The notes: generated by a model not told the origin, from the sequence alone. DNA of 64,000 bases from Eubacteriales bacterium (GCA_045602215.1 JAZSBE010000060.1:536-64535); one strand, 5' to 3'; positions 10,849 through 59,624 are shown, numbered from the stretch's first letter. Numbers and translations: made by a program.

Positions 10849-10895
10849 AAAGAGAATGGCTGGCACATCGTGCCAGCCATTCTCTTTTGGTGGAG
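10841..10895 (+). terminator. ssrA terminator, a 26-bp perfect inverted repeat that includes the tmRNA 3' end
   Basis: CTCCACCAAAAGAGAATGGCTGGCAC (10841-10866), loop ATC, GTGCCAGCCATTCTCTTTTGGTGGAG (10870-10895). A TTTT run lies inside the right arm. Confidence 0.7.
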
Positions 10896-10897
10896 CT

Positions 10898-11135: not shown

Positions 11136-11136
11136 T

Positions 11137-14341: not shown

Positions 14342-14367
14342 GGGGCATCAAACGCTCCTTTCTTTTA

Positions 14368-18342: not shown

Positions 18343-18376
18343 ATAGGATGGATTGCTATAGGAATGGATGGGATTT

Positions 18377-18883
18377 ATGCGAATACTTGGAATTGACCCA
18401 GGTCTTGCCATCGTAGGATGGGGGATCGTGGATTACGAAAAATCAAAATTTCATACCGTTGCCTACGGCGCGCTTCGCACGCAGGCAGGGCTTTGCACCG
18501 AGGAGCGGCTTGAGCTGATCTACAAAGGGATGTGCGAGCTGCTGGAAAAATATCGCCCCGATGCGATCTCGATTGAGGAATTATTCTTCAACACCAACAT
18601 CACCACCGGTATCCGCGTGGCGGAGGCAAGGGGGGTACTGTTGCTTGCGGCAAGGCAATTTGGCGCGGAGATTCAGGAATACACCCCCTTGCAGGTCAAG
18701 CAGGCGGTGGTTGGATATGGTCGCGCCGAGAAGAAGCAGGTCATGTCGATGGTGACGATGCTGCTCGGGCTGAAGGAAACACCCAAGCCCGACGATACGG
18801 CAGACGCGCTCGCGCTTGCGATTTGTCACGCGCACAGCGGCGGCTCTCGCTTGGCGAATTATTACAACAAGAGCACCATTTAG
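18377..18883 (+). CDS. ruvC: Crossover junction endodeoxyribonuclease RuvC
   Basis: MRILGIDPGLAIVGWGIVD is the canonical RuvC N-terminus. The ORF track starts 9 nt earlier, at 18368. Confidence 0.93.
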   Translation: MRILGIDPGLAIVGWGIVDYEKSKFHTVAYGALRTQAGLCTEERLELIYKGMCELLEKYRPDAISIEELFFNTNITTGIRVAEARGVLLLAARQFGAEIQEYTPLQVKQAVVGYGRAEKKQVMSMVTMLLGLKETPKPDDTADALALAICHAHSGGSRLANYYNKSTI

Positions 18884-34774: not shown

Positions 34775-35779
34775 TTATTTCGTCTTCTTACGTGAGGAGA
34801 GGGGATTGTGAGACATGGCGTCCTCGATGCTCCGATTCGATACGTGTGTGTAAATTTGCGTGGTGTTGAGCTGCTCGTGACCGAGAATCTCCTTGAGCAC
34901 CCGAACGTCAACATTTCCGCTTTGATACATCAAGGTCGCCGCGGTGTGACGAAGCTTGTGAACCGAGTAGTGCTTGGCTTCAAGACCTGCAAGCTTGAGG
35001 TATTTGTAGATCATCCATTGGACGGTTTTTACGCTCATGCGTTGCTCCAGGCGGCTGAGAAAGACGCCCTTGTCCTTGATAGAGGCATACTGCGCGCTTT
35101 TTCGAATGGTGAGGTAGGCGCCAAGCGCATCTTGACAGGCTTGGTTCAAATATACGATACGCTCCTTGCTTCCTTTACCCGTGACGCGAATGGAGCGGAG
35201 CTGAGGGTCGATGTCTCCCAGGTTGATCCCGACCAGCTCGGAAACACGCATCCCGCAGTTGAGGAAAAGGGTGACGATGGCATAGTCTCTTACGCGGAAA
35301 GGGGATTCGCGGTCGTTTTCAATCGCGTCGAGAAGCGCCTCGGATTCCTCAAGCGTGAGATATTTGGGGAGTGATTTTTTTGGTTTGGGGGAATCCATAT
35401 CCGCCGTGGGATTGTACTCCAGATAGTGGCGCTTGGAGACCAGATACTTGTAAAGAGAGCGGAGAGAGGACAGTTTGCGCGAGCGCGCCGCCCATTGATT
35501 GCCTCTTTGCTGGTTTGCATAAAACAGGAAATCGTAAATTTCCTCGGCACGAATTTTCCCGAGACGCTCCAGCCCGATCGAGCTGACGTCGATTTGATTA
35601 AATTCCTCCGACGCGGGATCAATGCCGTATTCCTTGGAGAGAAGATAGCGGAAAAAGGTGCGAAGATCCAACAGGTATTCCTGAACGGTTTTCTGCGAGC
35701 ACCCCTGCAGGGAAAGCTTGTAGGAGGCATATTCCTGAATCAGCGGAGAAAATTCATTTGGAGAAATCAGTTGTGCCAT
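34775..35779 (-). CDS. xerC: Tyrosine site-specific recombinase, XerC/XerD family
   Basis: 334 aa. N-terminal SAM-like core-binding domain. Catalytic HKLRHTAAT (HxxR) and LGHEQLNTTQIYTHV (H...Y). Confidence 0.85.
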   Translation of the reverse strand: MAQLISPNEFSPLIQEYASYKLSLQGCSQKTVQEYLLDLRTFFRYLLSKEYGIDPASEEFNQIDVSSIGLERLGKIRAEEIYDFLFYANQQRGNQWAARSRKLSSLRSLYKYLVSKRHYLEYNPTADMDSPKPKKSLPKYLTLEESEALLDAIENDRESPFRVRDYAIVTLFLNCGMRVSELVGINLGDIDPQLRSIRVTGKGSKERIVYLNQACQDALGAYLTIRKSAQYASIKDKGVFLSRLEQRMSVKTVQWMIYKYLKLAGLEAKHYSVHKLRHTAATLMYQSGNVDVRVLKEILGHEQLNTTQIYTHVSNRSIEDAMSHNPLSSRKKTK

Positions 35780-41122: not shown

Positions 41123-41137
41123 GGCATATATAAATAT

Positions 41138-41297
41138 GATAGAGGCGCATTTTGAAATGAGTACCGAGCGTGTCAAAGCCTTCGCAGGGCGTTGCGGTTG
41201 GGAAAGGTTCGGATGCCGAAGACGGTCGAGGCGAAAGATCGGTCTGGCAGAACGTGAGAACATCCGTTATGCTGTCGCAGAAATGCGGAGAGCTATC
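41138..41297 (+). promoter_or_regulatory. Lysine riboswitch (L-box) aptamer
   Basis: GATAGAGGCGC...GAGTA...GCCGAAG...TGG...GCTGTC...GGAGAGCTATC are the conserved L-box blocks. P1 is GATAG/CTATC. It lies upstream of the lysine biosynthesis genes. Confidence 0.85.
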
Positions 41298-41344
41298 CTT
41301 CTTCACAGAGATTTGCTCCGATCGGGCAAGGAGATCAGTGAACT

Positions 41345-41383
41345 GGCAGAGCCGCATTCGAACTATGGGCTCTGCCTGTTTTT
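41345..41383 (+). terminator. Riboswitch expression-platform terminator
   Basis: ggcagagcc (41345-53) paired with ggctctgcc (41368-76), followed by tgttttt, 39 nt before the dapA ATG. Confidence 0.7.
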
Positions 41384-41421
41384 GCGGACAGAGCAATCTC
41401 AAACAGAAAGGAAACACAAAC

Positions 41422-42330
41422 ATGAACGAAAAGAAAACCGTCTTCAGAGGTGCCGCAAGCGCACTGGTAACTCCCCTTAACGAGAACGGAGTAGACTATC
41501 CCGCATTGGAGAAACTGATCGAATGGCAGATTGAGAAGGGAATCAACGCCCTCGTCACCTGCGGTACGACCGGCGAGGCTTCTACCCTGACCGATGAAGA
41601 GCACCGCGAGGTCATTCGCTTTACGGTAGAGAAGACGAGAGGCAGAGTTCCGGTCATTGCAGGAACGGGATCGAACGATACCGATTATGCGATCGAGCTG
41701 ACCAAGTACGCTTGCGAGGTTGGCGCGGACGCCGTTCTGGTTGTAACGCCTTACTACAACAAGGCAACGCAGAAGGGACTGATTCAGTCCTTTACGGCAA
41801 TTGCCGACGTCAGCACGAAGCCCGTGATCCTCTACAACGTTCCTTCCAGAACAGGTTGTAACATTCTTCCCGCAACGGCATCCGTTCTTGCTGATCATCC
41901 TATGATCGTGGGCATCAAAGAGGCAAGCGGTAACATTTCTCAGATTGCCGAGCTTGCAGCGGCTGTGAGAGGTCGTATGGGTATCTATTCGGGTAATGAC
42001 GATCAGATCGTTCCCGTGCTTTCCTTGGGCGGTATCGGCGTGATTTCGGTGCTCTCCGACATTATGCCTGCCGAGACAGTTGAGATGTGTGATAAGTTCT
42101 TCCGCGGAGATATTGCGGGAAGCACCAAGCTTCAGCTCGATCTCTTGCCCGTGATCTCTGCTTTGTTCAGCGAGGTCAACCCCATTCCCGTCAAGGCAGC
42201 GTCTGCTGCAATGGGACTTTGTGAGAACTACGTTCGCCTGCCTCTGACCGTGATGGAGCCCGAGCATGAGGCGAAGATGATTGCAGTTATGAAGAAATGG
42301 AATTTGATCCCCGAGGGAGGAAACGCTTAA
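41422..42330 (+). CDS. dapA: 4-hydroxy-tetrahydrodipicolinate synthase
   Basis: FRGAASALVTPLNENG.VDY..L..LIEWQI..G...LV.CGTTGE. The N-terminal extension in the track ORF (from 41170) covers the riboswitch and is spurious. Confidence 0.95.
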   Translation: MNEKKTVFRGAASALVTPLNENGVDYPALEKLIEWQIEKGINALVTCGTTGEASTLTDEEHREVIRFTVEKTRGRVPVIAGTGSNDTDYAIELTKYACEVGADAVLVVTPYYNKATQKGLIQSFTAIADVSTKPVILYNVPSRTGCNILPATASVLADHPMIVGIKEASGNISQIAELAAAVRGRMGIYSGNDDQIVPVLSLGGIGVISVLSDIMPAETVEMCDKFFRGDIAGSTKLQLDLLPVISALFSEVNPIPVKAASAAMGLCENYVRLPLTVMEPEHEAKMIAVMKKWNLIPEGGNA

Positions 42331-43082
42331 TGGAGATTCTCATTTGCGGAATCGGAGGCAGAATGGGAAGAGAGGTCGCCTCTCTGACTATGGCGGGATG
42401 CAGAGGCTCTCGCCCCGTGGCAGGATTTGATATTCTGCCGGTGGATACGAGAGATTTTCCAAGCTATACCGACTGGAATGCGGTGTGTGAGACGCCCGAT
42501 TGCATCATTGATTTTTCCCATCACTCGGGAACCGAGGCGATGCTCTCCTTCGCTGTTGCAAAGAAGATCCCCGTCGTGCTTTCCACGACCGGTCACACCG
42601 AGGAGGAGCTGGCTTGTATTCAGGCTGCCGCAAAGCAGATTCCGATCTTCTTCTCGGCAAATATGTCTGTCGGCGTAGCGCTTTTGGCAGAGCTTGCCAA
42701 GAAGACGGCAAAGGCGATGCCCGATGCGGAAATCGAGATCATTGAAAAGCATCACAACCGCAAGCTGGACGCTCCCAGCGGAACGGCACTGCTTCTTGCA
42801 GAGGCGATCCGTACTGTGCGAAAGGGCGCAAAGCTGATTTTCGGAAGATACGGACAGGGCAAGCGCGATCCCGATGAGATCGGAATCCACGCCATCCGAA
42901 TGGGAAATATCGTCGGAGATCACGAGATCATCGTGGGAACCGATACCCAGACCATCACCCTGCGCCACGAGGCGCATAGCCGTGCACTCTTTGCAGAGGG
43001 CGCGGTTTGCGCGGCAGAATTTCTGATCCAGCAGCCTGCAGGACTTTACAATATGCAGGATTTCCTGAATTTTGCCGACTGA
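42330..43082 (+). CDS. dapB: 4-hydroxy-tetrahydrodipicolinate reductase
   Basis: MEILICGIGGRMGREV (NAD-binding start) and EIIEKHHNRKLDAPSGTA. TAATG overlap with the dapA stop. Confidence 0.9.
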   Translation: MEILICGIGGRMGREVASLTMAGCRGSRPVAGFDILPVDTRDFPSYTDWNAVCETPDCIIDFSHHSGTEAMLSFAVAKKIPVVLSTTGHTEEELACIQAAAKQIPIFFSANMSVGVALLAELAKKTAKAMPDAEIEIIEKHHNRKLDAPSGTALLLAEAIRTVRKGAKLIFGRYGQGKRDPDEIGIHAIRMGNIVGDHEIIVGTDTQTITLRHEAHSRALFAEGAVCAAEFLIQQPAGLYNMQDFLNFAD

Positions 43083-43094
43083 GGAGTACGAAAG

Positions 43095-43952
43095 ATGAAA
43101 ATTCCTTTTACCAAGATGCATGGCATCGGAAATGACTATATTTACGTAAATTGCATGGAAAAAGAGCTGGACGACCCCAACCGCGTGTCCTTCGTGATGT
43201 CTCCGAGACACTTTTCGGTGGGCGCAGACGGACTTGTGATGATCTGCTCCTCCGAGATCGCCGACGCAAAGATGAGAATGTTCAATGCGGACGGCAGTGA
43301 GGGAAAAATGTGCGGAAACGCCATTCGTTGCGTTGGAAAGTATCTGTATGACAACGGCATCGTTTCCAAGGAGAAGCTGAGCATCGAAACGCTTTCGGGT
43401 ATCAAGTATCTCAGCCTCAACGTCGAGAATGGAAAGGTCAAGTCGGTCGAGGTCGATATGGGCAAGGCGATCCTGACCCCTGCCGATATCCCCGTTGTTT
43501 TTGACGGAGAGCGCATGATTGATCAGCCTGTTGAGGTCAACGGCGGCGTATACCGTCTGACGGCTGTTTCTATGGGAAATCCCCATGCCGTTACCTTTGT
43601 GGACGACGTGGATTCTCTGGATCTTGAGAAGATCGGCCCCAATTTTGAAAACCTTGCAATTTTTCCCGACCGTGTGAACACAGAGTTTGTTCGCGTGATT
43701 GATTCCAAGACGCTTCAGATGCGCGTTTGGGAGCGCGGAAGCGGCGAGACCTACGCCTGCGGCACGGGTGCTTGCGCGACTGTCGTAGCGGCGGTTCTGA
43801 ACGGAATTTGCCCCATGGATACCCCCATCACCGTTCGCTTGCGCGGCGGAGATCTTAAAATTGTATGTGAGAGCGATATGCGCGTGCTGATGACAGGACC
43901 CGCACAAAAGTCTTATGAAGGAGTGTTTGACTATGAAGATTCGGATCAATGA
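43095..43952 (+). CDS. dapF: Diaminopimelate epimerase
   Basis: FTKMHGIGNDYIYV, the MCGNAIRC catalytic Cys, and ACGTGA for the second Cys. Confidence 0.93.
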   Translation: MKIPFTKMHGIGNDYIYVNCMEKELDDPNRVSFVMSPRHFSVGADGLVMICSSEIADAKMRMFNADGSEGKMCGNAIRCVGKYLYDNGIVSKEKLSIETLSGIKYLSLNVENGKVKSVEVDMGKAILTPADIPVVFDGERMIDQPVEVNGGVYRLTAVSMGNPHAVTFVDDVDSLDLEKIGPNFENLAIFPDRVNTEFVRVIDSKTLQMRVWERGSGETYACGTGACATVVAAVLNGICPMDTPITVRLRGGDLKIVCESDMRVLMTGPAQKSYEGVFDYEDSDQ

Positions 43953-45114
43953 GCATTTTGGAGAGATTAAGGAAAGCTATCTGTTTTCCGACATTGCAAA
44001 GCGCGTCAAGGCGTACAGCGCGGCTCATCCCGAGCAAAAGATCATTCGTTTGGGAATCGGCGACGTGACCCTTCCTCTGACCGAGTCGGTAATCGAGGCG
44101 ATGCACCGCGCGGTCGACGAGATGGCGGAGTCCAAGACCTTCCGTGGATACGCTCCCGAATACGGCTACGATTTTCTGCGCGGCGCGATCGCAGATTACT
44201 ATGCGCGCATGGGTGTTGCGCTTGACGCAGAGGAGATCTTCGTCAGCGACGGCGCCAAGAGCGATATCGGCAATATGGTGGATATTCTTGGCGACAACGA
44301 TATTCTGATCCCCGATCCCGTTTATCCCGTTTACGTAGACAGTAACCTGATGAGCGGACGCAAGGCGACCCTGCTTGAGGCAAACGCAGAGAATGGATTT
44401 TTGCCCATGCCTGCAGGAATTGAGGAGAAGGCTTGGCTGATCTATCTTTGCTCCCCCAACAATCCTACGGGAGCGGTCTACAACCGTGAGCAGTTGACCG
44501 AGTGGGTGGGTTTTGCAAACCGCACCGGATCGCTGATCCTGTTTGACTCCGCTTACGAGTCCTATATCAAGGGCGATTATCCGCACTCTGTTTACGAGAT
44601 CGAGGGCGCGCGCTCCTGCGTGATCGAGATCTGCAGTCTTTCCAAGACCGCGGGCTTTACCGGTACCCGTTGCGGTTGGACGGTGCTTCCCGCAGAGCTT
44701 GAGGCGAACGGTGTCAAGCTTGCAAAGCTTTGGGCAAGACGTCAGGCGACCAAGTTTAACGGCGTTCCTTACGTCGTTCAGAGAGCGGCAGAGGCGGCGG
44801 TTTCCGAAAAGGGACACGCCGAGGCAATGGAATGTGTCGGATATTATATGGAAAATGCAAGAATTCTGGCTGAGTTCCTCAGAGAAAAGGGAATTTGGTT
44901 CACGGGCGGAGAGAACTCTCCCTACCTGTGGCTGCGTTGCCCGAACGGAATGGGCTCTTGGGAGTTCTTTGATTACTTGCTGGAAAACGCGCAGATCGTT
45001 GGTACTCCCGGCGAGGGATTCGGAAAGTGCGGAGAGGGATATTTCCGCCTGACCTCCTTCGGTACGCGTGAGTCTACGATCGAGGCGGTAGAACGCCTGC
45101 GCTGCTTGCTTTGA
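43933..45114 (+). CDS. dapL: LL-diaminopimelate aminotransferase
   Basis: INEHFGEIKESYLFSDIAKRV....HPEQKIIRLGIGDVTLPL, GY.PEYGYDFLR.AI and SLSKTAGFTG (PLP Lys). The ATG at 43933 follows AAGGAG. Confidence 0.88.
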   Translation: MKIRINEHFGEIKESYLFSDIAKRVKAYSAAHPEQKIIRLGIGDVTLPLTESVIEAMHRAVDEMAESKTFRGYAPEYGYDFLRGAIADYYARMGVALDAEEIFVSDGAKSDIGNMVDILGDNDILIPDPVYPVYVDSNLMSGRKATLLEANAENGFLPMPAGIEEKAWLIYLCSPNNPTGAVYNREQLTEWVGFANRTGSLILFDSAYESYIKGDYPHSVYEIEGARSCVIEICSLSKTAGFTGTRCGWTVLPAELEANGVKLAKLWARRQATKFNGVPYVVQRAAEAAVSEKGHAEAMECVGYYMENARILAEFLREKGIWFTGGENSPYLWLRCPNGMGSWEFFDYLLENAQIVGTPGEGFGKCGEGYFRLTSFGTRESTIEAVERLRCLL

Positions 45115-45122
45115 GGTGAATT

Positions 45123-46421
45123 ATGATTTGTGAAAATCTTTCGGTAAACGAGAAGGGGAATCTTTGCATCGGCGGGATGGATACCGTTGAGCTTGCAAAG
45201 AAGTATGGCACACCTCTTTACGTGATGGACGAAGATCGCATCCGCGAGCGTTGCCGCACGTATATGACCGCCATGAAGGAGGCGTTTGGTGAATCTGCGC
45301 TTCCGCTTTACGCCGGAAAGGCTGCTGCTTTCCGTCACATCTACCGTGTGATGAGAGAGGAGAACATGGGAATCGACGTGGTTTCGTCGGGCGAGATCTA
45401 CTCGGCGGCTTCGGTGGATTTCCCGATGGAAAGAGCGTATTTCCACGGAAATAACAAGACGGATGCTGACATTGCTTACGCGATGGAGCATGGCGTGGGC
45501 ACATTCGTTGTAGACAACAACGAGGAGCTTTACGCGGTGGATCGCATTGCAGGCGAGAGAGGGATCAATCAGAAGATCCTCATCCGTATCACCCCCGGAA
45601 TCGACCCTCATACCTATGAGGCGGTCTCTACCGGGAAGGTGGATTCCAAATTCGGTAACGCCATTGAAACAGGCGCGGCAGAGCAGATCGTATCCAATGC
45701 GCTCACCCTCAAGAACATTACGCTGATGGGCTTCCACTGCCACGTTGGATCTCAGGTTTTTGATTCCGACATCTATCTCCGCGCGTGTGCGATTATGCTG
45801 GATTTCTCGGCGCAGATGAAGGCAAAATTCGGATATGAGATCCGCGAGCTGGGTCTTGGCGGCGGATACGGTGTTCGCTACCTTGAGGAGCATCCCATCA
45901 TCGATATTCCTGCGAATATCCGTCAGGTCGGTGCGGCGTTCAAGGCACAGTGCGAGAGCCTTGGTCTGACACCTCCCGCGGTTCGTATGGAGCCGGGCAG
46001 AAGCATCGTTGCCGATGCAGGTCTGACGCTTTATACCGTTGGAACCGTGAAGCGGATCCCCGGCTACAAGAACTACGTTTCGGTGGACGGCGGCATGACC
46101 GACAATCCTCGCTTTGCGCTCTACCAGTCTCCCTACACGGCGTATATTGCAAACCGCATGAATGAGCCTGCGGGTATGCGCGCGTCGGTGGTTGGAAGAT
46201 GCTGCGAGAGCGGAGACATTCTTCAGGAGAACGTTGCGGTTCCCGAGACAACCGAGCGTGGCGATATTGCCGCAGTTCTGACCACGGGAGCATATAACTA
46301 TGCGATGTCGATGACCTATAACCGCATTCCGCGCCCTGCAATGGTTATGGTCGCAGGCGGCGAGGACAAGCTCATCATTCGCCGCGAATCCTACGAGGAT
46401 CTTTGCAGAAACGAGCTGTAA
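45123..46421 (+). CDS. lysA: Diaminopimelate decarboxylase
   Basis: L.IGG.D...LA.KYGTPLYV.DE..IR, YAGKA, GFHCHVGSQ, EPGRSIVA, GAYNY. Confidence 0.93.
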   Translation: MICENLSVNEKGNLCIGGMDTVELAKKYGTPLYVMDEDRIRERCRTYMTAMKEAFGESALPLYAGKAAAFRHIYRVMREENMGIDVVSSGEIYSAASVDFPMERAYFHGNNKTDADIAYAMEHGVGTFVVDNNEELYAVDRIAGERGINQKILIRITPGIDPHTYEAVSTGKVDSKFGNAIETGAAEQIVSNALTLKNITLMGFHCHVGSQVFDSDIYLRACAIMLDFSAQMKAKFGYEIRELGLGGGYGVRYLEEHPIIDIPANIRQVGAAFKAQCESLGLTPPAVRMEPGRSIVADAGLTLYTVGTVKRIPGYKNYVSVDGGMTDNPRFALYQSPYTAYIANRMNEPAGMRASVVGRCCESGDILQENVAVPETTERGDIAAVLTTGAYNYAMSMTYNRIPRPAMVMVAGGEDKLIIRRESYEDLCRNEL

Positions 46422-51530: not shown

Positions 51531-52646
51531 ATGGCAAGTTTATCTCTGAAGCATATTTACAAGAAGTATCCCGGCGGCGTTACTGCAGTATCCGACTTCA
51601 ACCTGGAGATCAAGGACAAGGAGTTCCTGGTTCTCGTAGGACCTTCCGGTTGCGGTAAGTCCACCACTCTGCGTATGATCGCAGGTCTGGAGGAGATCTC
51701 CGAGGGTGAGCTCCGCATCGGCGACCGTTTGGTAAACGACGTTGCTCCTAAGGATCGTAAGATCGCGATGGTGTTCCAGAACTACGCTCTGTATCCTCAT
51801 ATGTCCGTGTTTGAGAACATGGCATTCGGTCTGAAGCTGAGCAAGGTTCCGAAGGACGTCATCAAGAAGAAGGTTGAGGACGCAGCTCGCGTGCTCGACA
51901 TCACCCACCTGCTTGACCGTAAGCCGAAGGCTCTCTCCGGTGGTCAGAAGCAGCGTGTTGCTCTCGGACGTGCAATCGTTCGTAACCCTGAGGTATTCTT
52001 GCTTGACGAGCCGCTTTCCAACTTGGACGCAAAGCTTCGTGCTGCGATGAGAACCGAGTTGACCAAGCTTCACAACCGCGTTGAGACCACCTTCGTATAC
52101 GTAACGCACGACCAGGTAGAGGCTATGACCATGGCTACCAGAATCGTCGTTATGAAGGACGGTCTGATTCAGCAGGCTGACGCTCCTCAGAAGCTCTACG
52201 ACGAGCCCGTAAATATGTTCGTTGCAGGCTTTATCGGAACGCCTCAGATGAACTTCATGGAAGGTAAGCTTGAGGAGAAGGACGGCGCGCTGTACTTCGT
52301 TTACGAGGGCAACTACCTCAAGATGCCCGAGGACAAGGCAAAGGCTCCCGAGCTTCAGGAGTACATTGGCAAGGAGGTATTCGGCGGTCTCCGTCCCGAG
52401 TGTATCTTTGACGATGAGCAGAACCTTGAGAAGCATGCTGACGCAGCGTTCGATACCGACGTTGACGTAACCGAGTTGATGGGCGCTGAGATTTATCTGT
52501 ACCTCAACGTTGGAGAAGAGGGCAAGCTGATCGCTCGCGTTTCCTCCAGATCCAAGACTCGCGCAGGCGACAAGATCAAGGTTGCTTTCGATATGACCAG
52601 ACTTCATATCTTTGATAAGGATACCGAGCGTTGCGTTCTGCACTAA
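51531..52646 (+). CDS. msmX: Carbohydrate ABC transporter ATP-binding protein (MsmX/MalK/UgpC type), orphan
   Basis: L.L.HIYKKYPGG..AV.DFNL.I.D.EF.V.VGPSGCGKSTTLRMIAGLE, LSGGQ.QRVA.GRA and a C-terminal regulatory/TOBE domain. The ATG at 51531 follows AGGAGGA. Confidence 0.9.
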   Translation: MASLSLKHIYKKYPGGVTAVSDFNLEIKDKEFLVLVGPSGCGKSTTLRMIAGLEEISEGELRIGDRLVNDVAPKDRKIAMVFQNYALYPHMSVFENMAFGLKLSKVPKDVIKKKVEDAARVLDITHLLDRKPKALSGGQKQRVALGRAIVRNPEVFLLDEPLSNLDAKLRAAMRTELTKLHNRVETTFVYVTHDQVEAMTMATRIVVMKDGLIQQADAPQKLYDEPVNMFVAGFIGTPQMNFMEGKLEEKDGALYFVYEGNYLKMPEDKAKAPELQEYIGKEVFGGLRPECIFDDEQNLEKHADAAFDTDVDVTELMGAEIYLYLNVGEEGKLIARVSSRSKTRAGDKIKVAFDMTRLHIFDKDTERCVLH

Positions 52647-52660
52647 TCGGTATGATAAAA

Positions 52661-52692
52661 AGGCATCGCGGATACTCCGCGATGCCTTTTTG
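52661..52692 (+). terminator. Rho-independent terminator
   Basis: aggcatcgcgga (52661-72), loop tac, tccgcgatgcct (52676-87), followed by TTTT. Confidence 0.75.
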
Positions 52693-52878
52693 GTGTTTTG
52701 GAGTGCAAATCACAATATTTTTGACCGAAATGGGAAATATTTTTAACAAAAATCACGAAAATTTTCAAAAAACTATAGATTTTTTCTACATAATGTAGTA
52801 TAATGTATTTGTTGTGTGTTGCAATTCAGAATGCAACGGTGAAAATGACGAAAAACAAGTTAGGAGGCTGCTTGAATT

Positions 52879-53373
52879 ATGAAGAAGAAACTGACGATGG
52901 TCGAGTTTCACGGGACCAAAGAGCAAGAAGAGGCTTTGCTGAAGGTCATTGAAAAGCATATCGGAGAAAAGGGCTCCATGATGCCGATCCTTCAGGAGGC
53001 GCAGGAGATCTACGGTTATCTTCCGATTGAGGTTCAGAAGATCATCGCTGACAAGACCGGTGTTTCCCTCGAGGAGATCTTTGGAATCGTGTCTTTCTAT
53101 GCTCAGTTCAAACTGAATCCCGACGGTCAGTACGCGATTGCCGTTTGTCTGGGAACCGCTTGCTACGTAAAGGGATCGGGAGACATTATCGAAAAGATTT
53201 CCGAGCGACTCAACGTTCCGATCGGAAGCACGTCGGCTGACGGCAAGTATTCCATTGAGGCAACCCGTTGCATCGGTGCGTGCGGACTGGCTCCTGTTCT
53301 GACCGTGAACGGCGAGGTTTACGGAAGACTGACCGTTGATGACGTTGACGGTATTCTTGCAAAATACATCTGA
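52879..53373 (+). CDS. hydC: [FeFe]-hydrogenase small subunit HydC (NuoE-like, thioredoxin-like [2Fe-2S])
   Basis: 164 aa. MPILQEAQEIYGYLP, VCLGTACYVKG and CIGACGLAPV are NuoE-type motifs. Confidence 0.88.
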   Translation: MKKKLTMVEFHGTKEQEEALLKVIEKHIGEKGSMMPILQEAQEIYGYLPIEVQKIIADKTGVSLEEIFGIVSFYAQFKLNPDGQYAIAVCLGTACYVKGSGDIIEKISERLNVPIGSTSADGKYSIEATRCIGACGLAPVLTVNGEVYGRLTVDDVDGILAKYI

Positions 53374-53421
53374 TCTTTCGGGATCTGTGATTTATAATAA
53401 AGAGAGAGAGGAACCGAATTT

Positions 53422-55347
53422 ATGATATCTTTGGTTGAACTTGAAAAGATCAGAGAAACAATGAAGGAATCTTTGATTCTTCGAAACGATAATAAGGACG
53501 TCAAGGCGGGTGGAGACAGCAAGGTTCGCGCACATGTTTTGTGCTGCGGCGGAACCGGCTGTACGTCTTCCGGAAGCCCCAAGATTCAGGCTGCGTTTGA
53601 GTCTGAAATCGCAAAGCAGGGCCTTTCCGAGGAGATCAAGGTGATCCAGACCGGATGCTTTGGACTTTGCGCGCTTGGTCCTGTCGTCATCGTGTATCCC
53701 GGCGGAACCTTCTACAGCAACGTAACCGTTGAGGACGTTGCAGAGATCGTTTCCGAGCATCTGGTGAACGGACGGGCTGTCGAGAGATTGGTCTACAACG
53801 ACGTTGCAGATGCTGACGTGGTAGAGGATGCACACTATTCCTTGAATGATACGATTTTCTATAAATCTCAGTACCGTCTGGCACTCCGTAACTGCGGTGT
53901 GATCGACCCTGAGAACATTGACGAGTACATCGGTAGAGACGGATATAAGGCACTTGGCAAGGTGCTGACCGAGATGACGCCCGATCAGGTTATCGAGACC
54001 ATTCTGGCATCCGGACTTCGCGGACGCGGCGGCGCAGGATTCCCCACGGGTATGAAGTGGAAGTTTGCCTCCGGCAACCGCGGCAACGTTCAGAAGTACG
54101 TTTGCTGTAACGCGGACGAGGGTGACCCCGGCGCGTTCATGGACCGTTCCGTGCTGGAGGGGGACCCCCACGCATTGATCGAGGCAATGGCGATCGCAGG
54201 CTATGCGATCGGAGCAGATCAGGGTTACGTTTACGTTCGTGCAGAGTATCCCATCGCCGTAAACCGTCTGAAGATCGCGATTGAGCAGGCAAAAGAGAAG
54301 GGACTTCTCGGTGAGAATATTTTCGGAACCGGATTCAACTTTGATTTGGACATCCGTTTGGGCGCAGGCGCCTTCGTGTGCGGTGAGGAGACCGCTCTGA
54401 TGACCTCTATCGAGGGTAACAGAGGTGAGCCTCGTCCCCGTCCTCCGTTCCCGGCTGTCAAGGGTCTGTTTGGCAAGCCTACCGTTTTGAATAACGTGGA
54501 AACCTATGCAAACATTCCGCAGATCATTCTCAACGGCGTGGAGTGGTTCACAAGCATCGGAACCGAGAAATCCAAGGGTACGAAGGTCTTTGCGCTTGGC
54601 GGAAAGATCAAGAACACCGGTCTTGTTGAGGTTCCTATGGGTACCACGCTCCGTCATATCATCGAGGAGATCGGCGGCGGTATCCCGAACGGAAAGCAGT
54701 TTAAGGCAGCGCAGACCGGCGGACCCTCCGGCGGATGCATTCCTTCTCACTTGATCGATACCCCCATCGACTACGATAACCTTTTGGAGATCGGTTCGAT
54801 GATGGGATCGGGCGGACTCATCGTCATGGATGAGGACAACTGTATGGTTGACATCGCTCGCTTCTTCCTGGAGTTCACGGTTGACGAGTCCTGCGGAAAG
54901 TGCACGCCTTGCCGAATCGGAACCAGAAGATTGCTTGAGATTCTGGATAAGATCATTGAGGGTAAGGGCGAGATGGAGGATCTTGATCGCCTCGAGGAGC
55001 TCTCCAACTACATCAAGTCCGCATCCCTTTGCGGACTGGGTCAGACCGCTCCGAACCCCGTGCTTTCCACGCTTCGCTACTTCAGAGATGAATATATCGC
55101 GCACATCGTGGACAAGAAGTGTCCGGCAGGCGTATGCAAGAAGCTGATTCGCTTCAGCATCGACGCCGACAAGTGTATCGGTTGCGGTATGTGCGCAAGA
55201 AATTGTCCTGCAGACGCCATTCGCAAGACTACTTACGTGGCTCCCGGTCACAAGCTGCCGTCTCTTGAGATTGATCCCGCAAAGTGCGTGAAGTGCGGAG
55301 CTTGTCTGGATTCTTGTAAGAAGATCAAGGCGATTTCCAAGGGCTAA
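53422..55347 (+). CDS. hydB: [FeFe]-hydrogenase flavoprotein subunit HydB (NuoF-like)
   Basis: N-terminal [2Fe-2S] domain, GLRGRGGAGFPTGMKWKF (FMN/NADH site), ESCGKCTPCR (N3-type cluster), and a C-terminal 2x[4Fe-4S] region (CIGCGMCARNCP, CVKCGACLDSC). Confidence 0.9.
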   Translation: MISLVELEKIRETMKESLILRNDNKDVKAGGDSKVRAHVLCCGGTGCTSSGSPKIQAAFESEIAKQGLSEEIKVIQTGCFGLCALGPVVIVYPGGTFYSNVTVEDVAEIVSEHLVNGRAVERLVYNDVADADVVEDAHYSLNDTIFYKSQYRLALRNCGVIDPENIDEYIGRDGYKALGKVLTEMTPDQVIETILASGLRGRGGAGFPTGMKWKFASGNRGNVQKYVCCNADEGDPGAFMDRSVLEGDPHALIEAMAIAGYAIGADQGYVYVRAEYPIAVNRLKIAIEQAKEKGLLGENIFGTGFNFDLDIRLGAGAFVCGEETALMTSIEGNRGEPRPRPPFPAVKGLFGKPTVLNNVETYANIPQIILNGVEWFTSIGTEKSKGTKVFALGGKIKNTGLVEVPMGTTLRHIIEEIGGGIPNGKQFKAAQTGGPSGGCIPSHLIDTPIDYDNLLEIGSMMGSGGLIVMDEDNCMVDIARFFLEFTVDESCGKCTPCRIGTRRLLEILDKIIEGKGEMEDLDRLEELSNYIKSASLCGLGQTAPNPVLSTLRYFRDEYIAHIVDKKCPAGVCKKLIRFSIDADKCIGCGMCARNCPADAIRKTTYVAPGHKLPSLEIDPAKCVKCGACLDSCKKIKAISKG

Positions 55348-55365
55348 GAAAGGGGAATTGTGAAA

Positions 55366-57120
55366 ATGGATATGATTCAGGTTACAATTAACGGCGTGGT
55401 GTATTCCGTTCCTGCAGGCTCTACCGTTCTGGAAGCGGCAAGAGTAGCAAACATTGATATTCCTACGCTGTGTTATTTGAAGGATATTAACGAGATCGGC
55501 GCGTGCCGTCTGTGTCTTGTAGAGGTTTCCGAAAAGCGCGGTGCTACTATGGGCCCGTTCCGTATGGTTACGGCTTGCGTGTATCCCTGTACCGACGGTA
55601 TGGAGATCAAGACCAACACCCCCAAGATCACGGCTTCGCGCAAGATGAACTTGGAGCTGTTGCTCTCCAATCACGATCAGAAGTGCCTCTCCTGCGTGCG
55701 CTCCACCAACTGTGAGCTGCAGACTCTGTGCCGTGAGTACGGCGTAGATCAGTCTCGCTTCAAGGGTGTTGTGAATCAGTACGAGATCGACGATAAGACG
55801 CCTATCATCCGCGACAACAACAAGTGCGTGCTTTGCCGCAGATGTGTTGCAACGTGCGCAAAGATCCAGGAGATCGGTGTCATTGGCGCGAACAACCGTG
55901 GATTTGATACTTACGTAGGCTCTGCGTTTGAGCAGGCGCTTGAAAGCACCTCCTGCATCAACTGCGGTCAGTGTATCGTGGCTTGCCCCGTAGGTGCGCT
56001 CTATGAAAGAGATGACACCGATAAGGTGTTTGAAGCATTGGCAGATCCTAAGAAGCACGTGATGATTTGCACCGCTCCTTCGGTTCGCGCACAGCTTGGC
56101 GAGTGCTTCGGCTACGAGCCCGGTACCGACGTGGAGGGCAAGATGGTTGCCGCTCTGAAGGCGCTTGGCTTTGACGGTGTATACGATATGAACCTCACCG
56201 CTGACCTGACCATCGTTGAGGAGGCAAACGAGCTGATCGGAAGAATCCAGAACAACGGAACGCTTCCCATGATCACCTCTTGCTCGCCCGGATGGATCAA
56301 GTATTGCGAGCATTACTTCCCGGATTTTGTGGACAATCTTTCCACCTGCAAGTCTCCTCAGCAGATGTTCGGTGCGGTCGTGAAGACCTATTACGCGCAG
56401 AAGATGGGCTGGGATCCCGCAGATATCGTGATGGTTTCCGCAATTCCTTGTACCGCAAAGAAGTTTGAGGTTGGACGTCCCGATCAGTCTGCTGCAGGCG
56501 TTCCCGACGTGGATTATGCAATCACCACCCGTGAGGTTGGCAGAATGATTCAAAAGGCGGGCATCAACTTCCGCGCGCTTGCAGACGCGGCGTTTGACGA
56601 TCCCTTTGCGATCGGTTCGAGCGCAGGCGCGATCTTCGGCGCAACCGGAGGCGTTATGGAGGCGGCTCTCCGCTATGCGGCTGAGGTTATTCTCGGCAAG
56701 AAGCTGGAGAAGATCGACTTTGCAGAGGTTCGCGGTGTTGAGGGAATCAAGACTGCTTCCTACAAGCTTGGTGATCTGACCGTTAACGTTGCGGTTGCCT
56801 CCAGTACAGGTATGGCAAAGAAGCTCCTTGAGAAGGTGAAGAAGGGCGAGCTTGACGTTCAGTTCATTGAGATCATGGGGTGTCCCGGCGGATGCGTCAA
56901 CGGTGGCGGTCAGCCGATCCAGCCTGCAAAGGTTCGCATGAATATGGATCTTCGTGCGGTTCGCGCGGCGGTTCTTTACAACGACGATGCGACCTCCGAG
57001 TTGCGTAAGTCGCAGGATAACCTCGCGGTTCAGAAGCTCTATGACGAGTTCTTTGAGAAGCCCAACAGTCATAAGGCTCACGAGATTCTCCATACCTCCT
57101 ACATCAAGAGAGGACTTTAA
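55366..57120 (+). CDS. hydA: [FeFe]-hydrogenase catalytic subunit HydA (M3, CpI-like architecture)
   Basis: - N-terminal [2Fe-2S], His-ligated cluster (HDQKCLSCVRSTNCELQ) and 2x[4Fe-4S].
- H-cluster motifs: L1 TSCSPGW (non-canonical), L2 IPCTAKKFE, L3 EIMGCPGGCVNGGGQP.
- An in-frame GTG at 55360 is an alternative start. Confidence 0.92.
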   Translation: MDMIQVTINGVVYSVPAGSTVLEAARVANIDIPTLCYLKDINEIGACRLCLVEVSEKRGATMGPFRMVTACVYPCTDGMEIKTNTPKITASRKMNLELLLSNHDQKCLSCVRSTNCELQTLCREYGVDQSRFKGVVNQYEIDDKTPIIRDNNKCVLCRRCVATCAKIQEIGVIGANNRGFDTYVGSAFEQALESTSCINCGQCIVACPVGALYERDDTDKVFEALADPKKHVMICTAPSVRAQLGECFGYEPGTDVEGKMVAALKALGFDGVYDMNLTADLTIVEEANELIGRIQNNGTLPMITSCSPGWIKYCEHYFPDFVDNLSTCKSPQQMFGAVVKTYYAQKMGWDPADIVMVSAIPCTAKKFEVGRPDQSAAGVPDVDYAITTREVGRMIQKAGINFRALADAAFDDPFAIGSSAGAIFGATGGVMEAALRYAAEVILGKKLEKIDFAEVRGVEGIKTASYKLGDLTVNVAVASSTGMAKKLLEKVKKGELDVQFIEIMGCPGGCVNGGGQPIQPAKVRMNMDLRAVRAAVLYNDDATSELRKSQDNLAVQKLYDEFFEKPNSHKAHEILHTSYIKRGL

Positions 57121-57129
57121 TACCAAAAT

Positions 57130-57165
57130 GGGTGCCGCAACTTCTTGCGGCACCCGCTTTGGTTT
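57130..57165 (+). terminator. Rho-independent terminator of the hyd operon
   Basis: gggtgccgcaa (57130-40) paired with ttgcggcaccc (57145-55), followed by gctttggtttg. Confidence 0.65.
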
Positions 57166-57204
57166 GTGCAAATTGCCAAAAATAAAAAAAGTAGCAGAAA
57201 AGCA

Positions 57205-57233
57205 TTGAAAGATTTTGCATTTTGTGATATGAT
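57205..57233 (+). promoter_or_regulatory. Candidate sigma-A promoter
   Basis: TTGAAA (57205-10), 17-nt spacer, TATGAT (57228-33). Confidence 0.45.
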
Positions 57234-57301
57234 ATATTAGAAGAAATATATCACGTATGCAGATATCTGGAATGTGAGAGTAAAGGTATTGGAGGACATA
57301 G

Positions 57302-57946
57302 ATGATGTCAGAAATTTCTGTTCAATTTAAGAACCAGCTCAACGGCTACAATAAGAGCGAGGTTGACCTGCTTTTGAAGAAGATCGAGGGCGAGCTTCAG
57401 CAGAGAGCTGCTACCATTGACGCAATGCAGCAGCAGATTGCAGGACTTGAGGGCAAGCTCGAGGAGGCTCTTACCCCTCAGACCGTCGAGGCTGCGGAGA
57501 AAATTGAACTTTATGACAAGCTGATGAAGAAGATGGACGGCGACTTCAGAAATCTTCTTGCACCCGCGCAGGCAAAGGCAAAATCCATTGAGGAGAAGGC
57601 ACTGTCTGATTACGAGGTTCGCATGAGCCAGGCAAGAGAGGCTGCTGACGGCATTTACGAGATGGCGGTTGACCGCATTGCCGACGTTGTGGACGCAAAC
57701 ATGGACCGTCTGTACGGACTTTTGGACGATTATATCTACTCCAAGTCTCTCGCAGGTCGTTTTGAGGCGTTCTGCGAGTCCTGCAATATTGCATCCATGA
57801 AGGTTGCATCCGGCATCGTTGCAGCTGCAAAGATTCCCGGAAGAGCGGCGCGCGTTGTCAGCAAGAAGGTTCAGAACGCGATCGAGCAGCTTGAGGAAGC
57901 GGAAAATACATACGGTTGTTGCGAAGATGGAGAGTGCGATCTCTGA
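57302..57946 (+). CDS. DivIVA-domain coiled-coil protein
   Basis: The N-terminus F...L.GYNKSEVD.LL..IE.EL is the DivIVA-domain signature. The remainder is coiled coil. Cys-rich C-terminal end (CCEDGECDL). Confidence 0.7.
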   Translation: MMSEISVQFKNQLNGYNKSEVDLLLKKIEGELQQRAATIDAMQQQIAGLEGKLEEALTPQTVEAAEKIELYDKLMKKMDGDFRNLLAPAQAKAKSIEEKALSDYEVRMSQAREAADGIYEMAVDRIADVVDANMDRLYGLLDDYIYSKSLAGRFEAFCESCNIASMKVASGIVAAAKIPGRAARVVSKKVQNAIEQLEEAENTYGCCEDGECDL

Positions 57947-57987
57947 TTTTCGTTTGTGAATAACACCTTGGAAAGTGATGGTACGCT

Positions 57988-58872
57988 ATGAATATCGGTG
58001 AAAAAATTCGTTCTTTGCGAGTTGCAAAGCTCATGACGCAGTCAGAGCTTGCCGGTAATCAGATCACCCGAAATATGCTTAGTTGCATTGAAAACGGGAG
58101 CGCGCAACCATCACTTTCTACCATTTTATACATCGCAAAGGCGTTGAACGTGCCGGTCGGTTTTCTCCTGGCAGAGGAAGGCGATGAGCTTGTTTATCAG
58201 AAAATGAGCGGACTTCCGAACATCAAAAGGGCATATCGCGCAGGAGATTGGACGGGATGTCGTAGCCTTTGCCTTTCGTCCTGCCCGGATCCTGACGATG
58301 AGATTCGGCTGATTCTTGCCAACTGTGATCTTGAAATTGCAAAATCCCTTTTTTGGGAAGGGAAGATCCGTCAAGCCTGCCGCTTTTTTGATGAGGCAAT
58401 GCTCTATGCGGCGGATACCATCTATCCTGCAGAGCATATTCATGCCGAGGCAGAGGTCTACTTCCGCTATATGGAGCGGATCTCGCCTATGCTGTATTCC
58501 GACGTGCTGGACGATGGGGCGAAAAGGTCTGTTGTTTGTGTCAACGCCTTTTTTCAGTATATGATTGCATTGGAGGCGCTGGAAAACGGAGATGAGATTC
58601 CCGCAAAGCATTTTTCCGAGGTTTATTCGGAGGAATCCTTCTTTTGCTCGCATCTACACGTAAAATGCTTGATGAATCAAAGCAAATTCGGAGAGGCAAA
58701 AGATGCTCTCATGACCCTTTTAGAGGAAGAGATCTTGCTCAACGAGATCAGTCTTTTGGCGATCTTGAGCGATCTAGAGATCTGTTGCAGAGAGATCGAG
58801 GATTTCAAGGGCGCATACCGTTATTCCAACGAGCGTGTACAGCTTTTGGAAAAGCTGTTGAGAGAAAATTAA
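57988..58872 (+). CDS. XRE-family HTH regulator with a ~230-aa helical-repeat (TPR-like) C-terminal domain
   Basis: HTH IGEKIRSLRVAKLMTQSELAG..ITRNMLSCIENG...PSL.T..YIAKALNVPVGFLL. The remainder is predicted all-helical repeats. Confidence 0.8.
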   Translation: MNIGEKIRSLRVAKLMTQSELAGNQITRNMLSCIENGSAQPSLSTILYIAKALNVPVGFLLAEEGDELVYQKMSGLPNIKRAYRAGDWTGCRSLCLSSCPDPDDEIRLILANCDLEIAKSLFWEGKIRQACRFFDEAMLYAADTIYPAEHIHAEAEVYFRYMERISPMLYSDVLDDGAKRSVVCVNAFFQYMIALEALENGDEIPAKHFSEVYSEESFFCSHLHVKCLMNQSKFGEAKDALMTLLEEEILLNEISLLAILSDLEICCREIEDFKGAYRYSNERVQLLEKLLREN

Positions 58873-58902
58873 AAAAGAAGATGCGTTTGCATCTTCTTTT
58901 TT
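58871..58902. terminator. Bidirectional terminator
   Basis: aaaaaagaagatgc / gcatcttctttttt hairpin between convergent genes. Confidence 0.6.
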
Positions 58903-59245: not shown

Positions 59246-59302
<57 letters not shown>

Positions 59303-59322
<20 letters not shown>

Positions 59323-59404
59323 AAAAAAGAATCCCAACACGCTGTGTTGGGATTCTTTTTTTGCTGAAAATCATCGAAACGATGGTCTCCGCAAATCTCG
59401 CAAA
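59303..59404 (+). repeat. Direct repeat copy 1 (tRNA-Val T-loop-to-CCA + terminator + 42 nt)
   Basis: 102 nt. It recurs at 59479-59581. It includes the tRNA terminator hairpin gaatcccaacac-gct-gtgttgggattc. Confidence 0.9.
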
Positions 59405-59478
59405 GCGAGATTATGCCAAGGCGCGCGATGAGATGAAACGTAGGTTAAGCACAGAATCAAAACGCGCGCATAAGTTCA
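59405..59478 (+). repeat. 74-nt junction segment, homologous to ssrA-downstream units U1/U2
   Basis: It completes hairpin H1 (aatctcgc-aaa-gcgagatt, 59394-59412). S2 is gcgcgcg 59421-27 paired with cgcgcgc 59463-69, with a 35-nt loop. Then 5 nt, then ttca. Confidence 0.65.
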
Positions 59479-59581
59479 GAGTCTCCCTGTTTCCACCAAA
59501 AAAAGAATCCCAACACAGCGTGTTGGGATTCTTTTTTTTGCTGAAAATCATCGAAACGATGGTCTCCGCAAATCTCGCAAA
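59479..59581 (+). repeat. Direct repeat copy 2 (pseudo 3' end of tRNA-Val + terminator copy + 42 nt)
   Basis: 103 nt, identical to copy 1 except that the hairpin loop is agc instead of gct and there is one extra T in the T-run. Confidence 0.9.
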
Positions 59582-59595
59582 ACCGTAGTAATGTG

Positions 59596-59624
59596 TTGAT
59601 TTTTTCCTTTGTGTGTGATATAAT
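59596..59624 (+). promoter_or_regulatory. Candidate sigma-A promoter of the nitroreductase gene
   Basis: TTGATT (59596-601), 17-nt spacer, TATAAT (59619-24). Confidence 0.5.

Follow-up and report, generated by a model that had tools for sequence, protein, structure and literature searches.

We analyzed a 64,000-nt stretch of DNA from a Eubacteriales bacterium (GCA_045602215.1, JAZSBE010000060.1:536-64535; hereafter the window, with positions counted from its first letter). A segment downstream of its tRNA-Val gene (59405-59478) and two units downstream of ssrA, the gene of transfer-messenger RNA (tmRNA), were found to belong to one family of repeat units of about 170 bases, which contain no gene and occur in a narrow group of uncultured gut Clostridia. 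The units lie 3' of tRNA or tmRNA genes, here together called t(m)RNA genes, with a regenerated gene on one side and a displaced fragment of its 3' end on the other. They have a strand-specific fold with a closing helix that mimics the target, and they encode no enzyme. We propose that they are non-autonomous, gene-less insertion cassettes for the T-loop of operon-terminal t(m)RNA genes, entering between C56 and G57, a reading that we consider about evenly poised between right and wrong.

A family of units behind t(m)RNA genes

That the Val segment and the ssrA units form one family had been proposed in a first inspection of the window (the sequence-only reading), and it was borne out by covariance models. 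Model R1 was built from 22 units, and model R2 from 16 units that come from other genomes and other tRNA genes, none of them a window, Val or ssrA sequence. R2 found all three units of the window, at 10904-11020 (67.3 bits), 11021-11142 (58.5 bits) and 59373-59494 (53.4 bits), with E-values from 6e-16 to 3e-12, and its next-best match in the window reached 10.4 bits. A filter-free search of the window with R1 returned the same three units and no further copy. The pseudo T-loops of all three read TTCAGA in place of the TTCGA of the genes, a shared change that had been pointed out earlier and that was confirmed both by reading the repeats and by a motif scan; the motif CGCRCGY-N5-TTCAGA occurs three times in the 64 kb, solely at these pseudo T-loops.

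A degenerate pattern made from the three window units was scanned against one genome per species of bacteria and archaea and gave 16 loci. Twelve were true members, all in metagenome-assembled genomes (MAGs) of Eubacteriales, Oscillospiraceae or Clostridia and all confirmed by R1. The other four (Terriglobia, Myxococcota, Pyrinomonadaceae and Noviluteimonas) look like chance matches, being about the number expected. At 9 of the 12 member loci a tRNA or tmRNA gene lies closely upstream on the same strand, and the remaining three (L003, L007 and L015) begin at a contig end. A scan of metagenomes added a duplicate of locus L013 and four member contigs, of which three are Lys, Ser-type and ssrA-type and the fourth shows no cognate tRNA. 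R1 finds 29 units in 16 loci. The search for relatives at the tRNA 3' flanks of other genomes, which the sequence-only reading had suggested, thus yielded about 30 units, in roughly 10 Eubacteriales or Oscillospiraceae MAGs and contigs.

The genes that carry units are those for tRNA-Ala, Glu, Lys, Val, Gly, Ser and His (the last in two MAGs), and ssrA. Five loci are occupied in the MAG JAZQVI01, whose flanking genes show about 90% identity with the window over 7.3 kb. Wherever the tRNA is visible, the unit lies 3' of the last tRNA or tmRNA of the operon, past its terminator and on the same strand; placement behind the last tRNA was seen in L013 and L018 (Gly-Arg-His) and in L006 (Met-Glu). Arrays consist of one to four units. 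L018 also contains, at 5990-6074 on the opposite strand, a terminal tRNA-Leu(gag) with no unit downstream, therefore not all terminal tRNAs in these genomes are occupied.

Anatomy and size of the units

Read along the tRNA strand, an occupied locus consists of the 5' part of the tRNA up to GRGTTC, the block from G57 to CCA, a terminator, a spacer, the core and the displaced 3' half. The core is made up, from 5' to 3', of preX (5 nt), X (GAACYC), a single C, the H1 hairpin (GCRAAT...ATTYGC), a linker of 4-6 nt, S2 (a GC stem of 7-10 bp with a variable loop of 32-36 nt), 2-3 nt, X' (GRGTTC) and an extra A. It measures 95-105 nt and ends in GRGTTC-A, after which the cognate tRNA is copied from G57 on (GANTCYC..., the 3' half of its T-loop); in every unit the identity with the tRNA begins at G57, right after TTC-A. 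The displaced fragment is at times the whole 3' end followed by another terminator. Such full 20-nt 3' ends with a terminator stand behind units in L009, L010 and the window Val locus, and in L009, L010 and L004 the displaced terminator differs from the proximal one. Two subfamilies can be distinguished, one with a short H1 and one with a long H1 containing a bulge, and both occur at several tRNA species.

The sequence-only reading had given S2 as 49 nt at both loci, in agreement with the S2 loop of 35 nt that we measured in all three window units. Its H0 hairpin, described as a block shared by the two loci, is a locus-specific spacer of 20-25 nt and not a family feature, and the ttaag that it noted in the S2 loop is not conserved across units. 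The distance of 176 nt between the genuine and the pseudo T-loop was measured again at both loci, but it is not constant: across 13 loci the first period ranges from 164 to 183 nt and is exactly 176 in four of them. The shared value at the two window loci is therefore a coincidence, 176 being the mode of a narrow distribution.

Later periods range from 113 to 216 nt, because displaced fragments and terminators get deleted, except for 1860 nt in L011, where a 1.86-kb insert separates the two units. This insert (about 400-2130, - strand) lies inside the terminator-hairpin loop between two tRNA-Ser units and carries a single gene, for a 378-aa XRE-family helix-turn-helix (HTH) protein, and no recombinase; the metagenome contig L027 (100-200) has the same two Ser units without it. 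In L015 (1-520), at least four tandem units follow one another with a period of 113-114 nt and no terminator between them, the contig beginning within the array, which represents the family's minimal array form.

Sibling units in L006 (1232-1265, 1393-1427) and L008 (5978-6012, 6134-6168) have flanks of about 90 nt with 0-1 differences and S2 loops that are mostly different. Loop types recur between genomes: the loop of L006 unit 2 resembles that of L003, and the loop of L006 unit 1 resembles those of L008 unit 2 and L023.

A covarying fold on the tRNA-sense strand

Covariation was measured on a plain MAFFT alignment of 22 units for the helices P1 (X with X'), H1 and S2. In these helices 88% of the cells were paired, against 13-50% when the partners were slid by 1-3 columns, and nine base pairs were changed on both sides. 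A comparison of the units with shuffled controls had been set beforehand as a test, and the observed pairing and covariation exceeded all of them: none of 500 column shuffles reached the observed paired fraction or covariation score.

The S2 stem GCGCGCG/CGCGCGC is replaced by GCGTGCG/CGCACGC in nine units, and unit 1 of L014 has a wholly different stem, TTTGCGC/GCGCAAA. H1 consists of a conserved base and a distal extension of 0-8 bp of differing sequence (TCTCGC, TTCAAAGC, TGC, GGC and others), its pairing being maintained over a length range of 7-14 bp; in the long form one base, usually A, is bulged. Minimum free energy (MFE) folds of single units gave the same Y-shaped three-way junction in five of six cases, with z-scores from -2.4 to -5.4. 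Among the paired cells, 33-44 were G.T and 5-6 were A.C, and this excess indicated that the fold belongs to the tRNA-sense (+) strand. Hairpins that vary in length while keeping their pairing, together with the strand bias, argue against ordinary double-stranded protein sites or operators. A conserved att-arm of the classical double-stranded form, one of the options offered by the sequence-only reading, is disfavored by the same compensatory changes and the same bias.

The closing helix as a copy of the target T-arm

The most informative feature of the units, which the sequence-only reading did not describe, is the closing helix. Formed by preX and X with X' and GANTC, it joins the core's 5' edge to the pseudo T-arm. 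Covariation links X and X' to the T-stem pair 52:62: they are CTC/GAG at Val, Glu, Lys and Ser, whereas ssrA, His, Ala and Gly have CCC/GGG, and both states are found in both subfamilies. In the short-H1 subfamily and the ssrA units, preX pairs with the GANTC past the extra A. It tracks T-loop position 59 (GAATT/GAATC with GATTC, GATTT/CATTC with GAATC, GAGTC with GACTC). Ser-type units have a 3x3 GA-rich internal loop followed by three pairs at the place of preX.

This covariation of X/X' and preX with the T-arm indicated that T-arm positions 51-61 are copied, in inverted form, at the left edge of the core. In the predicted fold, the strand recreates a duplex image of the target T-arm (51-61), with a family-specific A bulged at C56/G57.

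The tRNA-Val locus

The tRNA-Val(cac) gene is intact (59246-59322, + strand; ARAGORN; Rfam tRNA, 63.9 bits), and the insertion point would be C56/G57 of its T-loop, between 59302 and 59303. The proximal copy of the block from G57 to CCA (GAGTCTCCCTGTTTCCACCA; 59303-59322, +) is part of the functional tRNA. This exact 20-mer is present twice in the window, against 0.01 expected, the displaced full copy of the 3' end lying at 59479-59498 (+). An intrinsic terminator hairpin with A- and T-tracts (59314-59370, +; inverted repeat I2 with 27-nt arms, 93% complementary) would, under the model, be carried by the cassette. The core occupies 59384-59478 (+), as judged from the matches to R2 (given above) and R1 (76.9 bits), the fold and the loop length. 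It consists of a degenerate X, GGTCTC (59384-59389), H1 (59391-59416), the linker (59417-59420), the S2 stem (59421-59427/59463-59469) around a 35-nt loop, X' AAGTTC (59472-59477) and the extra A (59478). The junction segment flagged originally (59405-59478, +), which lies between the direct repeats D1 and D2, corresponds to the 3' arm of H1, the linker, S2 and X', and is the sole part of the locus that is not duplicated.

Downstream of the displaced 3' end come a second terminator copy with a flipped loop, AGC for GCT (59490-59546, +; inverted repeat I3; repeat D1, 95%), and a truncated second unit made up of the spacer, X, CCGCAAAT and the 5' arm and loop of H1 (59547-59581, +; repeat D2, 100%). 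A nitroreductase promoter was placed just 3' of it by promoter scan (59596-59624). The direct repeats, 59303-59362/59479-59538 (95%) and 59356-59404/59533-59581 (100%), are spaced by 176/177 nt. About 102 nt downstream of the T-loop are duplicated in this way (59303-59404 and 59479-59581), comprising the tRNA from G57 to CCA, the terminator, the spacer and the first half of the hairpin, and the array is a tandem duplication of 1.57 copies. The partial second copy, being 100% identical, is a recent duplication or re-insertion. The closing helix P1 is absent from the MFE fold of this unit because its X is degenerate.

The two terminator copies differ solely in the 3-nt loop, which is reverse-complemented (CAC-GCT-GTG at 59338-59346 vs CAC-AGC-GTG at 59514-59522), a signature of a hairpin-loop flip through intrastrand template switching or recombination across a palindrome. 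In comparison with the MAG contig JAZQVI010000040 (L009, 707-8000), the 7.3-kb gene block upstream of tRNA-Val (51583-58881) is inverted relative to the tRNA-Val segment, and the synteny with L009 stops at 59579-59581, inside the H1 loop of the truncated second unit. The array of L018 likewise terminates in a unit cut at a hairpin (the 5' arm of S2), suggesting that the hairpins may be breakpoints of rearrangement or deletion.

The ssrA locus

The ssrA gene is intact (10457-10848, +; ARAGORN; Rfam tmRNA, 161.8 bits), with the equivalent of G57 in its T-loop at 10829, and the 5' arm of its terminator hairpin takes in the tmRNA 3' end (10836-10900, +; inverted repeat I1 with 31-nt arms, 94%). 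The T-loop fragment GATTCCCATC is found at 10829 and again at 11005, with a spacing of 176 nt.

Unit 1 belongs to the short-H1 subfamily, and its core (10910-11004, +) folds into the Y-shaped junction by MFE. It comprises preX GAATT (10910-10914), X GAACCC (10915-10920), H1 (10922-10940), S2 (10947-10953/10989-10995, with a 35-nt loop), X' GGGTTC (10998-11003) and the extra A (11004). Its closing helix is complete, with 6/6 positions paired in P1 and 5/5 in the extension, and the first displaced tmRNA T-loop fragment follows at 11005-11014 (+; repeat D3). Unit 2, of the long-H1 subfamily, has its core at 11021-11126 (+; fold z-score -5.4), with preX AGATC (11021-11025), X (11026-11031), H1 with a bulged A (11033-11064), S2 (11069-11076/11110-11117), X' GGTTTC (11120-11125) and the extra A (11126). 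The second displaced fragment behind it is decayed (GATTCCCCA; 11127-11135, +; repeat D2), and right after this the stop of a convergent ABC-2 gene lies at 11137.

Probable turnover of the arrays

The number of units at ssrA differs between relatives: L032 has one, L014 has two (both long-H1) and the window has two (a proximal one with short H1 and a distal one with long H1). All three loci share an orthologous distal unit, unit 2 of the window being 84% identical to the distal unit of L014 and 83% to the unit of L032, with common S2 loop words. The proximal units of the window and L014 belong to different subfamilies. These arrays fit a series of insertions at the gene in which the most recent unit is the proximal one, an order that is moderately supported. 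At tRNA-Val, there are 1.6 copies in the window and two full units with three different terminators in L009. The cleanest single insertion is L010, in which 20-nt exact repeats of the tRNA-Gly 3' end each stand before a different terminator.

Proposed insertion cassettes and competing explanations

In the cassette reading, a unit would comprise the tRNA copy from G57 to CCA, its own intrinsic terminator, a short spacer and the core of 95-105 nt ending in GRGTTC-A; such cassettes are typically 164-183 bp long, and 113-114 bp in L015. Insertion at C56/G57 would rebuild the tRNA with the 3' end brought by the cassette and move the old 3' end downstream. Repeated insertion would give arrays, the newest unit probably being next to the gene, and the displaced fragments would then decay. 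The fold may serve as the site of recombination, a recombinase acting in trans on the folded single strand by a logic resembling that of integron attC x attI or CTX-phage attP x dif, with H1 as a putative protein-binding hairpin. The catalyst could be a tyrosine recombinase, or an HUH/Y1 enzyme for which X serves as a guide to X' and the target. Among the options listed in the sequence-only reading, a miniature non-autonomous element targeting T-loops accounts best for a core that recurs, together with the cognate 3' fragment, at eight or more different t(m)RNA genes, for varying copy number and for two subfamilies in one array. That reading's dismissal of an independent decay of two islands also held up. 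A more specific version would be an integron-like system without an integron, in which T-loops are the fixed acceptor, the cassettes are single strands of about 170 nt with a target-mimicking helix, a bulged A marks the point of exchange, a recombinase encoded in the chromosome acts in trans and the S2 loop is a variable payload or specifier; we think this possible but unlikely.

Several points weigh against the cassette reading. Neither an enzyme nor a circular form nor a clean empty site was observed, and mobility is deduced from a distribution among relatives that are all MAGs or metagenome contigs. The reading does not account for the acquisition of the 3' end of a new tRNA species upon a change of target. 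The spacer (H0) follows the locus and not the core subfamily, and the divergent S2 loops between identical flanks in L006 and L008 are not predicted by a simple cut-and-paste cassette. The spacer of L032 resembles that of L014 unit 1, so L032 may descend from an L014-like array by deletion. The window Val unit, which has no closing helix, may be a dead copy. In addition, RNA and single-stranded DNA would be indistinguishable by sequence as the folding molecule.

The core could instead be a structured noncoding RNA, produced by read-through of the t(m)RNA terminator or as a trailer, with a role in tRNA or tmRNA biology (processing, decoy or sponge) and with its spread being secondary. Three covarying helices, a strong bias of G.U over A.C on the tRNA-sense strand, the stable Y fold with the z-scores given above, the constant co-orientation with the tRNA and the ability of X' to pair alternatively with the 3' half of the T-stem, forming a pseudo T-arm, would all suit such an RNA. 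However, a strong intrinsic terminator precedes each unit, and no promoter-like site was found inside the window units by promoter scan. There is no consistent downstream gene (a convergent ABC-2 gene at ssrA, a nitroreductase gene with its own promoter at Val) and no Rfam match, and this explanation leaves aside both the displaced tRNA 3' end with a new terminator after each copy and a closing helix that replicates both strands of the target gene. We regard it as rather improbable. Of the earlier idea of a structured RNA co-transcribed with t(m)RNAs, the covarying and strand-specific structure stands, whereas the terminators and the absence of promoter-like sites speak against the co-transcription.

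If the units were decayed attR-side arms of integrase-bearing islands or prophages that had integrated in the T-loop and were then deleted, the regenerated tRNA and displaced 3' fragment would be the classical signature of tyrosine-integrase islands (Islander, PMC4383910). Yet none of the about 30 units has an integrase or island gene between tRNA and unit, and random deletions would not yield the conserved left boundary (X, preX) or the size of 164-183 nt. Phage, plasmid and viral-contig collections gave no match, and hairpin covariation with a strand bias is unexpected for double-stranded arm sites. Tandem fragments at ssrA, which Williams reportedly described in 2003 for such traffic, would agree with this origin, to which we assign a small probability overall. 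It is similarly hard to credit that an old local duplication of a tRNA 3' end spread with no dedicated machinery, through homologous recombination, gene conversion and palindrome-driven template switching, leaving the hairpins as by-products: the same core is found at at least eight unrelated tRNA genes that share only about 11 nt of T-arm, which is too little homology for recombination-driven spread. The coordinated three-way changes in X, X' and the T-stem, and those of preX with N59, also speak against it, as does the conservation of the CCGCRAAT and TTCAGA motifs across genomes about 90% identical in flanking genes. Its appeal lies in the window Val array, a plain tandem duplication whose copies are 95-100% identical, in spacers and terminators that track the locus, in the identical flanks and different loops of L006 and L008, and in the flipped terminator loop and the arrays truncated at hairpin loops.

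Known families and candidate mobilizers

No integrase, transposase or any common gene was found near the units across the 16 loci. Between successive pseudo T-loops (113-216 bp) there is no room for an open reading frame (ORF), and the 1.86-kb gap of L011 holds only the XRE-HTH gene. Comparison with Rfam, a check suggested by the sequence-only reading, gave no matching family: at the gathering score, the window and the 16 loci contained only tRNA, tmRNA and riboswitches, none of which overlaps a unit, and scans by E-value gave only sub-threshold matches of hairpin or miRNA type. The ssrA unit region (10890-11142) had no blastn match in phage or plasmid collections, and pattern matches in viral contigs were chance matches in coding DNA that the covariance model rejected. 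Full-text literature searches returned no description of such units.

Other identities were considered and rejected. The junction strands do not fit the core of the hammerhead ribozyme, as judged by eye. Duplexes of the S2 loop, taken as a guide, with the cognate tRNA were no better in energy than those with non-cognate or shuffled sequences, and S2 loops searched as spacers against phages and other loci matched only in homologous units. Retrons, CRISPR, TnpB omega-RNA and bridge RNA were set aside, with no associated protein gene in any locus; a guide of the TnpB type would also target the regenerated tRNA itself. As for a miniature inverted-repeat transposable element, the inverted repeat of 11-12 bp (preX+X / X'+GANTC) is target-derived and covaries with each tRNA, and there is no target-site duplication outside it and no autonomous relative. 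Cargo-bearing versions, with an orphan right end far from a left end, were not found. Neighboring XRE-HTH genes were dropped as partners, their similarity being confined to the generic HTH domain. The tRNA-Ala unit of L004 has an IS200-type tnpA (2334-2810), about 64% identical to Salmonella IS200 TnpA, at a distance of 1.7 kb. The hairpins at the ends of this IS200 copy (CCACCAGCAGTGCTGGTGG type) bear no relation to H1; the proximity is probably a coincidence, and the element was rejected as a mobilizer.

The Xer-family tyrosine recombinase gene at 34775-35779 (-; Pfam Phage_integrase, 1e-40), to which the sequence-only reading had pointed, is indeed the sole recombinase gene in the window. 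Its protein scores under the cut-off on the NCBIfam XerC/XerD models and reaches 88.5 bits on the integron-integrase model, for which the cut-off is 265 bits. Searched by tblastn against the 16 unit-bearing loci, it had no homologue. It is only a candidate for the trans-acting enzyme.

Comparison with known systems

In kind, a T-loop-targeting integrative element that regenerates the tRNA is known; the gene-less form with a target-mimicking fold is undescribed in Rfam and in the literature found by full-text searches. Tyrosine-integrase islands regenerate the tRNA and displace its 3' fragment (Islander, PMC4383910). The units resemble them in T-loop insertion, in an element-borne tRNA 3' end that regenerates the gene, in the displaced fragment at the far end and in tandem accumulation at ssrA and tRNA genes. 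Islands are recognized by a regenerated gene with a displaced direct repeat, a crossover in the T-loop, anticodon loop or 3' end, and an integrase inside the element beside the tRNA. Units show the displaced repeat (20 nt at Val, L009 and L010, and 10 nt at ssrA) and an identity that starts from G57 in every case, and no integrase lies inside the element at the 16 loci. Unlike islands, they measure 164-183 bp instead of kilobases and carry no integrase or cargo, and their arm is a conserved strand-specific fold that copies the target duplex, with an extra A at the junction. Williams, in work of 2002 and 2003, is said to have described the T-loop as a sublocation of integration.

In integrons, attC is a folded single strand with extrahelical bases that recombines with a double-stranded attI (PMC8946536). 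The units are like integron cassettes in forming arrays of small units, in their apparent insertion at one fixed array end and in a recombinase located outside the cassette. If DNA is what folds, DNA and RNA being indistinguishable by sequence, they would be like attC in being a site defined by structure and strand, with an extrahelical base and a variable terminal part; the sequences themselves show the fold, its strand bias and the A bulged at the junction. Unlike integrons, the window and related loci lack an IntI, attI or Pc platform, the units carry no ORF and the target is a tRNA gene; the unit is a three-way junction, whereas attC is a single hairpin. The R''/R' consensus of attC, RYYYAAC/GTTRRRY, is absent, the right end of the unit reading GTTCAGA (C at the first R, A at Y) and the left end GAACYC.

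CTX phage and other integrative mobile elements exploiting Xer (IMEX) present XerCD with a dif mimic made of folded single-stranded DNA. Here too a folded strand would recreate a duplex copy of the chromosomal target, and tandem arrays are formed. The units target the T-arm and not dif, and are 100 times smaller and gene-less. CTX and IMEX use a host Xer-type recombinase in trans; a role of Xer for the units is pure conjecture.

The palindrome-associated elements (PATEs) of IS200/IS605 and the repetitive extragenic palindromes (REP) with their associated tyrosine transposases (RAYT) (REP survey, PMC3733652) are, like the units, gene-less hairpin elements of one strand, on the lagging-strand template, and the pairing of X with X' has its counterpart in a short guide 5' of the hairpin foot that pairs with the cleavage or target site. 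Such elements have similar hairpins at both ends, whereas a unit has on its left a tRNA 3' end and a terminator that varies; H1 alone is conserved, and no second matching end hairpin exists. A 20-nt direct repeat of the target is present at the units, their helix has 6-11 canonical pairs and not 3-4, and no Y1 transposase is linked to them, the IS200 hairpins in L004 being unrelated.

Cis-mobilizable elements (CIMEs) are kilobase-sized deletion derivatives of known integrative and conjugative elements with recognizable parents. With these and other att-only satellites the units would share the reduction to recombination sites, mobilization in trans and tandem accretion at att. Unlike CIMEs, they are a conserved folded module with no known parent element.

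If mobile, the units would be among the smallest site-specific integrative elements known to us, and they would show that a tRNA-targeting element can consist of no more than a site for recombination, a new 3' end for the tRNA and a terminator. A closing helix that copies each T-arm would be a readable, reprogrammable targeting rule, relevant to recombinase mechanism and tool design. If they act as RNA instead, they would be a new class of tRNA-linked structured RNA in gut Clostridia. In practice, the units cause assemblies to break at tRNA loci, look like island boundaries to tools that locate islands via displaced tRNA fragments, and mark rearrangement breakpoints.

Gene content of the window

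The gene content of the window is that of an ordinary core chromosome, including RelA, SmpB, RuvABC, TruA, ClpB, GlnRS/GluRS, the Dap operon, Tex and hydrogenase subunits. GC skew is positive throughout, indicating that the folding (tRNA-sense) strand is the lagging-strand template. This position is compatible with the cassette model and weighs little, because tRNA genes are usually co-oriented with replication anyway.

The genes ruvB and ruvA (-; 13277-14994) and ruvC (+; 18368-18883) flank a gene for a large YfhO-family membrane protein (15001-17964). These genes for Holliday-junction enzymes lie 2-7 kb from the ssrA array and are considered ordinary housekeeping genes. A lysine riboswitch (41132-41303, 74.6 bits) stands ahead of the dapA-dapB-dapF-aminotransferase-lysA operon (41170-46421).

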